Of a DNA stretch of 64,000 nucleotides, positions 56,857 through 57,659 are shown piece by piece (within the stretch, counting starts at the first letter, position 1; each line of letters opens with the position of its first letter). The stretch lies in the IMG/VR virus record IMGVR_UViG_3300017791_000194, positions 10,083-74,082 of that record, one strand, 5' to 3'. The notes beneath the pieces were generated by a model, which searched no databases, was not told the DNA's origin, and saw only the letters and a program-made list of their open reading frames with translations. The DNA is from a virus (taxonomy: Duplodnaviria; Caudoviricetes). Made by a program: the position numbers and the translations under genes.

Positions 56857-57030
56857 CTATGCCTTCTCAGGCTTGTTCTCGTCCTCGTACTGCTCGTCAT
56901 TCGAGACTTCGACAGCCTCGGCCGCCTCCTCGTCGGTCGGGGCCTGGTTGTCTTCGAGTGCCTCCTCGTTGGAGACCTCGACGGCTTCCTGGGTCTGCTC
57001 GTCAGAGCCAAGCTCAGGCTGTCGCTCCAT
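56857..57030 (-). CDS. small acidic protein (57 aa)
   Basis: gaggag SD before ATG 57030; internal EAVEVSN duplication. Confidence 0.65.
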   Translation of the reverse strand: MERQPELGSDEQTQEAVEVSNEEALEDNQAPTDEEAAEAVEVSNDEQYEDENKPEKA

Positions 57031-57055
57031 GGGCGTACTCCTCAGAAGTAGACTG

Positions 57056-57183
57056 TGCCCTGCGTGGCAAGGCTTGGTTCGGCTAGGTGAGGCGAGCCAC
57101 GGTTGGCCTCGGCCGGGCATGGCCTGGTGTGGCAAGGTCGGGCAGGGCAAGGCGTGGCATGGTCGACGAGTTAGGTCTCGTCG
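57056..57183 (+). ncRNA. GGY-NN array 13 (22 units) plus 3' hairpin
   Basis: Register 57056-57165; cgacgag-ttaggt-ctcgtcg at 57164-57183; TAGACT at 57049. Confidence 0.85.
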
Positions 57184-57659
57184 TAACTAAAGTTGACCGT
57201 CTCCTGGGTCCAGTTGCCAGGACCCGCATCTGACGCGACGGCCAGCTGCATCACCATGTACTTCGTGGTCGCGTTCGTGGCGGTGTAGGACGCCGAGTCC
57301 CAGGTCGCCTTGTTGCCCGACGTGAAGTTGGTGAAGGTCGTGTTGGCAATGGTCGAGGTGGCATTGGTCGGCGTCACGCCGGTCACGTAGGCCACGGTGA
57401 AGAACAGGGTCGTCGAGGTCATCACCGCGCCGTCGCCCCAGGCCTTGAAGTTGGTGACGCCGTTGGCGGGGGCAGTGTCGACCTTGAGCTTGATCCACTT
57501 CTCGTAGCTCGCGGTACCAACCGTGATCGGGTTGGCGGTGCGGTTGGCGAGGGAGTTGGTGGCGTTGTCGGCGCTGATGAAGTCGACACCGGACACCGCC
57601 GCCGACTCCGTGCCCGCCGCCGAGCCGGTGTACACCCTCACGCTGAGGCTTGCTGCCAT
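57171..57659 (-). CDS. Thr/Ala-rich virion structural protein; homolog of the array 13 target
   Basis: aggag SD, very high GC3; follows the portal. Confidence 0.8.
   Translation of the reverse strand: MAASLSVRVYTGSAAGTESAAVSGVDFISADNATNSLANRTANPITVGTASYEKWIKLKVDTAPANGVTNFKAWGDGAVMTSTTLFFTVAYVTGVTPTNATSTIANTTFTNFTSGNKATWDSASYTATNATTKYMVMQLAVASDAGPGNWTQETVNFSYDET

Follow-up and report, generated by a model that had tools for sequence, protein, structure and literature searches.

A candidate stand-alone VIPR guide gene beside a near-match to its own guide in a tailed phage

VIPR, described for the first time in 2026, silences DNA in a CRISPR-like manner: Vipr, a minimal RAMP protein, polymerises on vrRNAs built of GGY-NN repeats. 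The NN pairs of these RNAs recognise double-stranded DNA with every third base skipped, the skipped base being mostly a codon wobble position, and the natural targets are competing phages and satellites (bioRxiv 10.64898/2026.04.26.720920). Solo or orphan vrRNAs have also been described; their guides occupy a former VIPR locus, and their targets are vipr genes, other vrRNAs and satellites (bioRxiv 10.64898/2026.10.15.759431).

We analysed a stretch of 64,000 nucleotides of phage DNA (the window), which corresponds to bases 10083-74082 of the 74,082-bp IMG/VR record IMGVR_UViG_3300017791_000194, a virus record that has direct terminal repeats and a G+C content of 63.5%. By its sequence, the array numbered 13 here is a vrRNA gene of the recently described VIPR system, and the system itself is already known. 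The features discussed below, including the gene expected to supply the protein partner, are as follows.

9091-9732, plus strand: vipr gene, 213 aa, a RAMP protein expected to load vrRNAs (phmmer and profile matches)
56857-57030, minus strand: acidic ORF of 57 aa downstream of array 13, with a homologue in the related loci L009 and L010
57049-57054, plus strand: -10-like TANNNT box, TAGACT, a putative vrRNA promoter a few bases upstream of unit 1 (comparative evidence)
57056-57165, plus strand: vrRNA array 13, 22 pentamer units, comprising 2 degenerate TGC units and then 20 GGY/GCC-NN units
57061-57115, plus strand: 5' guide segment, units 2-12, with NNs corresponding to V N F S Y D E T and stop, then TC CG
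57116-57165, plus strand: 3' part, units 13-22, with no convincing target, an internal GGCAT-GG at its start and a GGCGT GGCAT GGT end
57164-57183, plus strand: hairpin of 7 bp with a 6-nt loop, a putative vrRNA tail or bidirectional terminator (sequence and fold)
57171-57197, minus strand: near-self site, the last 8 codons and stop of the 162-aa gene; 7 of 9 units match the guide, the misses being Ser AGT and stop TAA
57171-57659, minus strand: gene of unknown function for a Thr/Ser/Asn-rich protein of 162 aa, directly after the portal gene; the ORF ends VNFSYDET*
57681-59000: portal gene (PF04860 match)

The product of the vipr gene matches PDB entry 36pp_D, "SUSP1 Vipr protein", in a phmmer search (E=1.6e-7), and a profile built from 14 homologues matches the 36pp chain with E=3.6e-11 over residues 59-188 of 202, the C-terminal G-loop (glycine loop) included. 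Downstream of vipr come ORFs 9729-10028 and 10028-10408, at the position of candidate accessory vap genes. Neither has a PDB match, and Pfam returns sub-threshold matches for 10028-10408 alone; this ORF also matches phrog_34511, a family of unknown function, and weakly a DNA-binding phrog. Comparisons with PDB, Pfam and PHROG revealed no nuclease domain beside array 13 or in the ORFs adjoining vipr. A gene with a RadC-like JAB domain (PF04002) is located at 7375-8022 on the plus strand, ~1 kb upstream of the vipr locus.

Array 13 lies between two minus-strand genes, the 162-aa ORF and the 57-aa acidic ORF. Direct reading of the sequence places all of its pentamers in phase, with no indel, where the definition of such an array asks for at least 4 units, and an array caller assigns its 20-unit core to 57066-57165. 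The TAGACT box is conserved, at the same spacing, upstream of the array of L001, a related locus discussed below. A consensus scan for sigma-70 promoters and intrinsic terminators returned nothing in 56800-57400, so the assignment of the TANNNT box as a promoter is a comparative one. The hairpin overlaps the stop and last codons of the convergent 162-aa gene, and the same stem is also present in relatives that lack the array. The fold of the interval 57030-57200 is unremarkable (z = -1.9). The best reading of array 13 is a vrRNA gene of its own on the plus strand, with predicted strand, ends and processing.

The guide was read by the published rule, in which the NNs are compared with codon positions 1-2 and one nucleotide is skipped. 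Read in this way, units 2-10 spell VNFSYDET and the stop, the end of the 162-aa gene in this phage, with seven of nine units exact. Both misses are synonymous: the guide has TC where the gene writes Ser as AGT, and TG where the gene has the stop TAA. The NN list and the partial match had been reported in an earlier note on this DNA; the list proved exact on re-reading, and the match with its synonymous misses is borne out as well, the probability of an equally good match within 150 nt of array 13 being ~0.004. The site is 6 nt from the array. Beyond the stop codon, the phage's own allele mismatches the guide at two further units through a 1-nt shift. Among all 148,000 diagonals of the 74-kb genome, a single other match scores as high.

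The near-array signal appears with a 1-nt skip, and none is seen with skips of 0, 2 or 3. In a control in which arrays and flanks were swapped among 16 arrays, scores of at least 5 were obtained for 4/16 arrays against their own flanks, compared with 2/240 swapped pairs. The NNs of array 13 have the same sense as the mRNA of the 162-aa gene. We therefore reject the action of an antisense RNA on the message, and the orientation fits recognition of DNA.

The other equally good match is formed by units 11-18, which agree at 7/8 with 21318-21341 on the minus strand, apparently non-coding DNA ~95 nt upstream of array 11 (21436-21525). This sole other score-6 match in the genome could be due to chance, or the guide could be aimed at the leader of another array. 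As a separate guide, the second-half units match 7/8 at this place in the phage's own genome and 6/6 in the related genome G004, and both values are at the level of shuffled controls; we have rejected this candidate.

Related loci provide a broader view of what the guide reads. We collected 80 viral and 80 metagenome loci that encode homologues of the 162-aa protein and represent ~105 distinct alleles. The C-terminus (V/I)(N/S)(F/Y)SYDET is conserved in >100 relatives. Over the 424 kb of these loci, array 13 has 16 matches with a score of at least 6, all of them on the 3' end of the 162-aa homologue, and each of the other arrays has 0-3 matches of score 6 and none higher. Perfect 8/8 runs cover VNFSYDET in L001-L003, and SYDET, a TGA stop and TCxCGx in L029-L031. 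When alignments are anchored at the stop codon, L001-L004 and L144 match 8/9 units, compared with 7/9 in the phage itself, and L023, L029, L031 and L108 match 9/11, compared with 7/11. If the guide were a sub-guide of 9 units (8/9) or of 11 units (9/11), it would match relatives at 80% or more of its NNs, the level published for natural targets.

These comparisons confirm that the first 9-11 units are directed, as judged from sequence, at the form in which relatives write the 3' end of the adjacent gene. The first half of the guide is slightly closer to the relatives' alleles than to the phage's own, with a small margin (7/9 versus 8/9). We considered whether switching of Ser between TCN and AGY codons is a signature of escape and rejected this, since codon mixing is 0.41 at this position versus 0.46 and 0.39 at two other conserved Ser columns. 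Units 13-22 have no match beyond chance in the relatives' alleles.

An array is present at this junction in this phage and in L001 (90% protein identity), at the same position and with the same flanks, and in no other relative. The L001 array lacks the VNFSYD units, which indicates that NN content turns over. A blastn search with 4 kb around array 13 gave no match among GenBank phages. Four near-complete related genomes (G002-G005) contain no arrays at all, and the phage's guides match them at chance level. Against G001, the closest relative (L096/L097), four of the phage's arrays score 7/8 to 8/8, and shuffled guides give ~0.2 matches of the 7/8 level per array. The G001 sequences matched at 7/8 correspond to WMRRPGWW for array 12 (51234-51293), DAVAAI*I for array 14 (61180-61269) and KRLTNSDN for the array at 11060-11094. 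Several of the phage's guides thus seem to be aimed at very close relatives.

We favour the reading that array 13 is a stand-alone VIPR guide gene whose 5' units read the gene end of relatives, so that rivals are marked or silenced and self is spared, and assign this a probability of roughly 0.7. The vrRNA would be transcribed from the plus strand, antisense to its neighbours, starting just after the TAGACT box and ending at the hairpin across the stop of the convergent gene. On the model of published work on SUSP1, Vipr protomers would bind each GGY and present the NN pairs, which would recognise double-stranded DNA with every third base skipped. The 5' 9-11 units would then read VNFSYDET, the stop codon and TCxCGx in related phages, and the most likely role would be to mark or silence closely related rivals at a late-operon junction while sparing the phage itself.

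In SUSP1, R-loops form first at the 3' tail and extend toward the 5' end (10.64898/2026.04.26.720927), whereas the matched half of array 13 is 5'-proximal. A target that matches the 5' half alone may for this reason escape engagement, except where processing divides the array into two guides. A possible division of array 13 into two guide modules is hinted at by an internal GGCAT-GG that comes directly after exactly the 11 matched units.

The earlier note had gone further, proposing that the whole guide spells out the array-free version of its own insertion site, so that the empty allele of related phages would be the target and the insertion would split it. Its arithmetic is correct, in that the stop-to-ATG gap at 57031-57170 is 140 nt and removal of 110 nt leaves 30. 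The second half of the guide, however, does not read this 30-nt remainder and the ATG: units 11-21 agree at only 3/11 positions (permutation p 0.02, for a single alignment). Of seven plausible choices of array boundary, one is in frame, and it is the one that had been adopted. One of the three agreements is the AT unit that had been set against the ATG, and most arrays share this unit at their end. Moreover, the presence of the TAGACT box in the flanks shared with L001 indicates that the box belongs to the cassette, and removal of the cassette then leaves ~23 nt.

Relatives also fail to supply the predicted empty site. In L009 and L010, a single nucleotide, and not a spacer of 30 nt, separates the stop of the 162-aa homologue from a homologue of the downstream acidic gene (E=2e-10). 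No target with at least 80% NN identity over the whole 20-21 units was found in the sequences examined, the best of ~105 alleles reaching 11/21, and exact IUPAC scans with units 2-12 and units 11-21 in IMG/VR and with units 5-15 in metagenome contigs gave 0 matches each. The array has all of the supported target (8 codons, the stop and TCxCGx) on one flank, that of the gene, and its insertion therefore leaves the target unsplit. The array-free read-out is thus not supported by these sequences. What survives is the idea that relatives' alleles are targeted, for the first 9-11 units (8/9 and 9/11, versus 7/9 and 7/11 for self) and not for a full-length empty site. Different spacing in array-less homologues and the absence of a better match than in this phage had been named as observations that would speak against the idea; the spacing does differ and no full-length match is better, but the first half matches better in relatives.

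The gene next to the array encodes a protein with no Pfam match and no PHROG match. Sugar-modification genes are located in the structural region at 55153-56759 on the minus strand, namely an NAD-dependent epimerase/dehydratase (PF01370) and a CmcI/rhamnosyl O-methyltransferase (PF04989); relatives have an epimerase homologue and other unannotated ORFs at this position. Given these nearby genes, the Thr/Ser/Asn-rich 162-aa protein may be a glycosylated virion protein.

In several relatives, other insertions occupy the junction at which array 13 is found. Free-standing LAGLIDADG_1 genes (Pfam) lie directly 3' of the 162-aa homologue in L002 (L002:3543-4265) and L035 (L035:3513-3947), and HNH_3 endonuclease genes (Pfam) are at the same junction in L004 (L004:3519-3932), L055 (L055:3545-3874) and L067 (L067:3549-3899). 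At the same place, L014:3543-4451 has a LAGLIDADG-type motif in its N-terminus, and its Pfam matches are to HTH only. On the gene content of these loci, the junction 3' of the 162-aa gene is a hot spot for selfish cassettes. T4-like phages carry free-standing homing endonuclease genes (SegG, MobE) that are associated with intron-less homing and marker exclusion.

One alternative that draws on this layout is that the cassette and the recoded neighbouring allele form a selfish pair, in which the guide marks the susceptible allele in co-infecting relatives. Recombination around the bound site would then transfer cassette and resistant allele to the rival, or susceptible recombinants would be lost. 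Such a process would parallel, with an RNA as guide, the intron-less homing and marker exclusion of free-standing endonuclease genes. We regard this as unlikely, although more probable than the other alternatives. In its favour, relatives carry endonuclease genes (with a motif only in L014) at the junction where the array lies, and the guide adjoins a near-self site here and, as described below, at three other arrays and at a dispersed array of L185. However, the insertion leaves the supported target unsplit, no nuclease is linked to the array and none is signalled beside vipr. The presence of the array in this phage and L001 alone, with the same site and flanks, fits one insertion followed by vertical descent, and the L001 array is without the VNFSYD units. 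Scans of IMG/VR and metagenomes found no empty-site allele that matches the full guide, and neither G001 arrays nor dispersed G008 arrays have near-self matches.

A more general form of this idea is a shade less likely again: dispersed vrRNA cassettes might be selfish, RNA-guided counterparts of free-standing homing endonuclease genes that travel together with a synonymously recoded resistant allele. Each cassette would adjoin a conserved gene and read the allele of that gene in relatives without arrays, and VIPR binding during mixed infection would bias inheritance in favour of the segment with the cassette. If true, this would also explain the spread of arrays from the vipr locus into gene junctions.

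The stand-alone guide gene that we favour has counterparts throughout the genome. About 15 further array segments are spread over 8987-61269, including the late structural region (51, 57 and 61 kb). Nearly every array has a TANNNT hexamer 4-16 nt upstream, and most arrays end in GGC(A/G)T GGCAT GG followed by a hairpin whose sequence differs between arrays. Terminal units are AT or GT in 18/22 cases, compared with 20% of interior units. Two of the arrays, at 20491-20565 and 21436-21525, flank three tRNA genes on the plus strand (Gln-CTG, Arg-TCT and Val-GAC; 20582-21042).

Three more arrays match their own flanks, with p<=0.013 each (10911-10990, 20491-20565 and 19292-19431), and the combined Fisher p for near-self matches over 16 arrays is 0.005. 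Array 2 (10911-10990, minus strand) abuts the stop codon of an 86-aa gene at 10650-10910 and spells its C-terminal FGGESHF (10881-10910, plus strand). As in array 13, its guide has TC where the phage's own gene has AGT. No relatives of the 86-aa gene were found.

In 15 phages with related Vipr proteins, arrays are mostly immediately downstream of vipr and on the same strand, and among five full records scanned, arrays away from vipr occur in G008 only. The canonical vipr-adjacent arrays of these 15 relatives are not enriched for near-self matches, with a mean own-flank score of 3.03 versus 2.89 for swapped pairs. A near-self match is absent in 34/35 arrays near vipr in relatives, the exception being a dispersed array of L185, whose Vipr is 59% identical. 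In this array (L185:9625-9709), 8/11 units match the opposite strand within 150 nt, and 4/1190 swapped pairs score as high. Near-self matches are also absent in the G001 arrays and in two dispersed G008 arrays. As far as these comparisons go, near-self matches are a property of some dispersed arrays.

The near-self match of array 13 could also reflect regulation in cis, if the vrRNA-Vipr complex binds the imperfect site in the carrier's 162-aa gene and acts as a roadblock or terminator between convergent units or tunes the late genes downstream. Whichever strand they bind, the published VIPR complexes repress transcription, and a 7/9 site 6 nt from the array, with near-self matches at three other arrays, would suit such a role. 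Selection for self-binding should nevertheless improve the match in the carrier, and the opposite is seen, since the guide fits array-less relatives more closely than its carrier. The mismatches are precisely those rare synonymous substitutions by which the positions read are changed, and published VIPR surveys found no self-targets at 80% or more. We consider cis-regulation quite improbable. Least probable of all is that the first nine units resemble the neighbouring C-terminus by coincidence, as a functionless by-product of array evolution: about 14 arrays and many registers were inspected in the earlier reading, an equally good match exists at 21318-21341 and the combined p over 16 arrays is only 0.005, but only the 1-nt skip gives the match, which is in codon phase and finishes at a stop codon, and within the 424 kb the 8/8 runs are confined to the homologous site, in six relatives.

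In the favoured reading, a guide sits beside its carrier's recoded copy of the target, an arrangement that would offer new insight into self/non-self discrimination and the population genetics of guides in a system that entered the literature only months ago. Several arrays in this genome repeat the pairing of guide and near-target, which suggests that weapon and immunity are linked and perhaps that their spread is drive-like.

The locus resembles the published VIPR systems of the Escherichia phage SUSP1 and a Pseudomonas fulva prophage (10.64898/2026.04.26.720920, 10.64898/2026.04.26.720927) in its GGY-NN pentamers and in the 1-base skip on wobble positions. As in those systems, the genome codes for a Vipr homologue, the apparent target is in related mobile elements and the 3' end may be structured. 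Unlike the arrays of the 15 Vipr relatives, those of this phage are not clustered by vipr but scattered, most with a -10-like box and a hairpin of their own. Array 13 has 20-22 units, compared with 9-16 in published VIPR arrays, and its tail is predicted to be a simple hairpin, in contrast to the published pseudoknot. It also differs in that only its 5' half has a recognisable target, and in that the guide is directly beside the phage's own homologue of that target.

Array 13 shares with solo or orphan vrRNAs the apparent aim at close relatives, a lower match to self and a wobble alignment to coding sequence. Its target, however, is the end of a conserved late gene, which the guide adjoins, and adjacency of guide and target is not described in the paper on those RNAs (10.64898/2026.10.15.759431). 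The locus is also like T4-type homing genes, in that a small cassette lies beside a conserved gene, the allele of rivals would be recognised, the resident allele differs at the positions that are read and relatives have LAGLIDADG or HNH genes at this junction. The likeness is one of layout only, and in this phage an RNA guide would do the recognising. A VIPR guide that adjoins its near-target within a hot spot for homing endonuclease genes appears to be a new arrangement.
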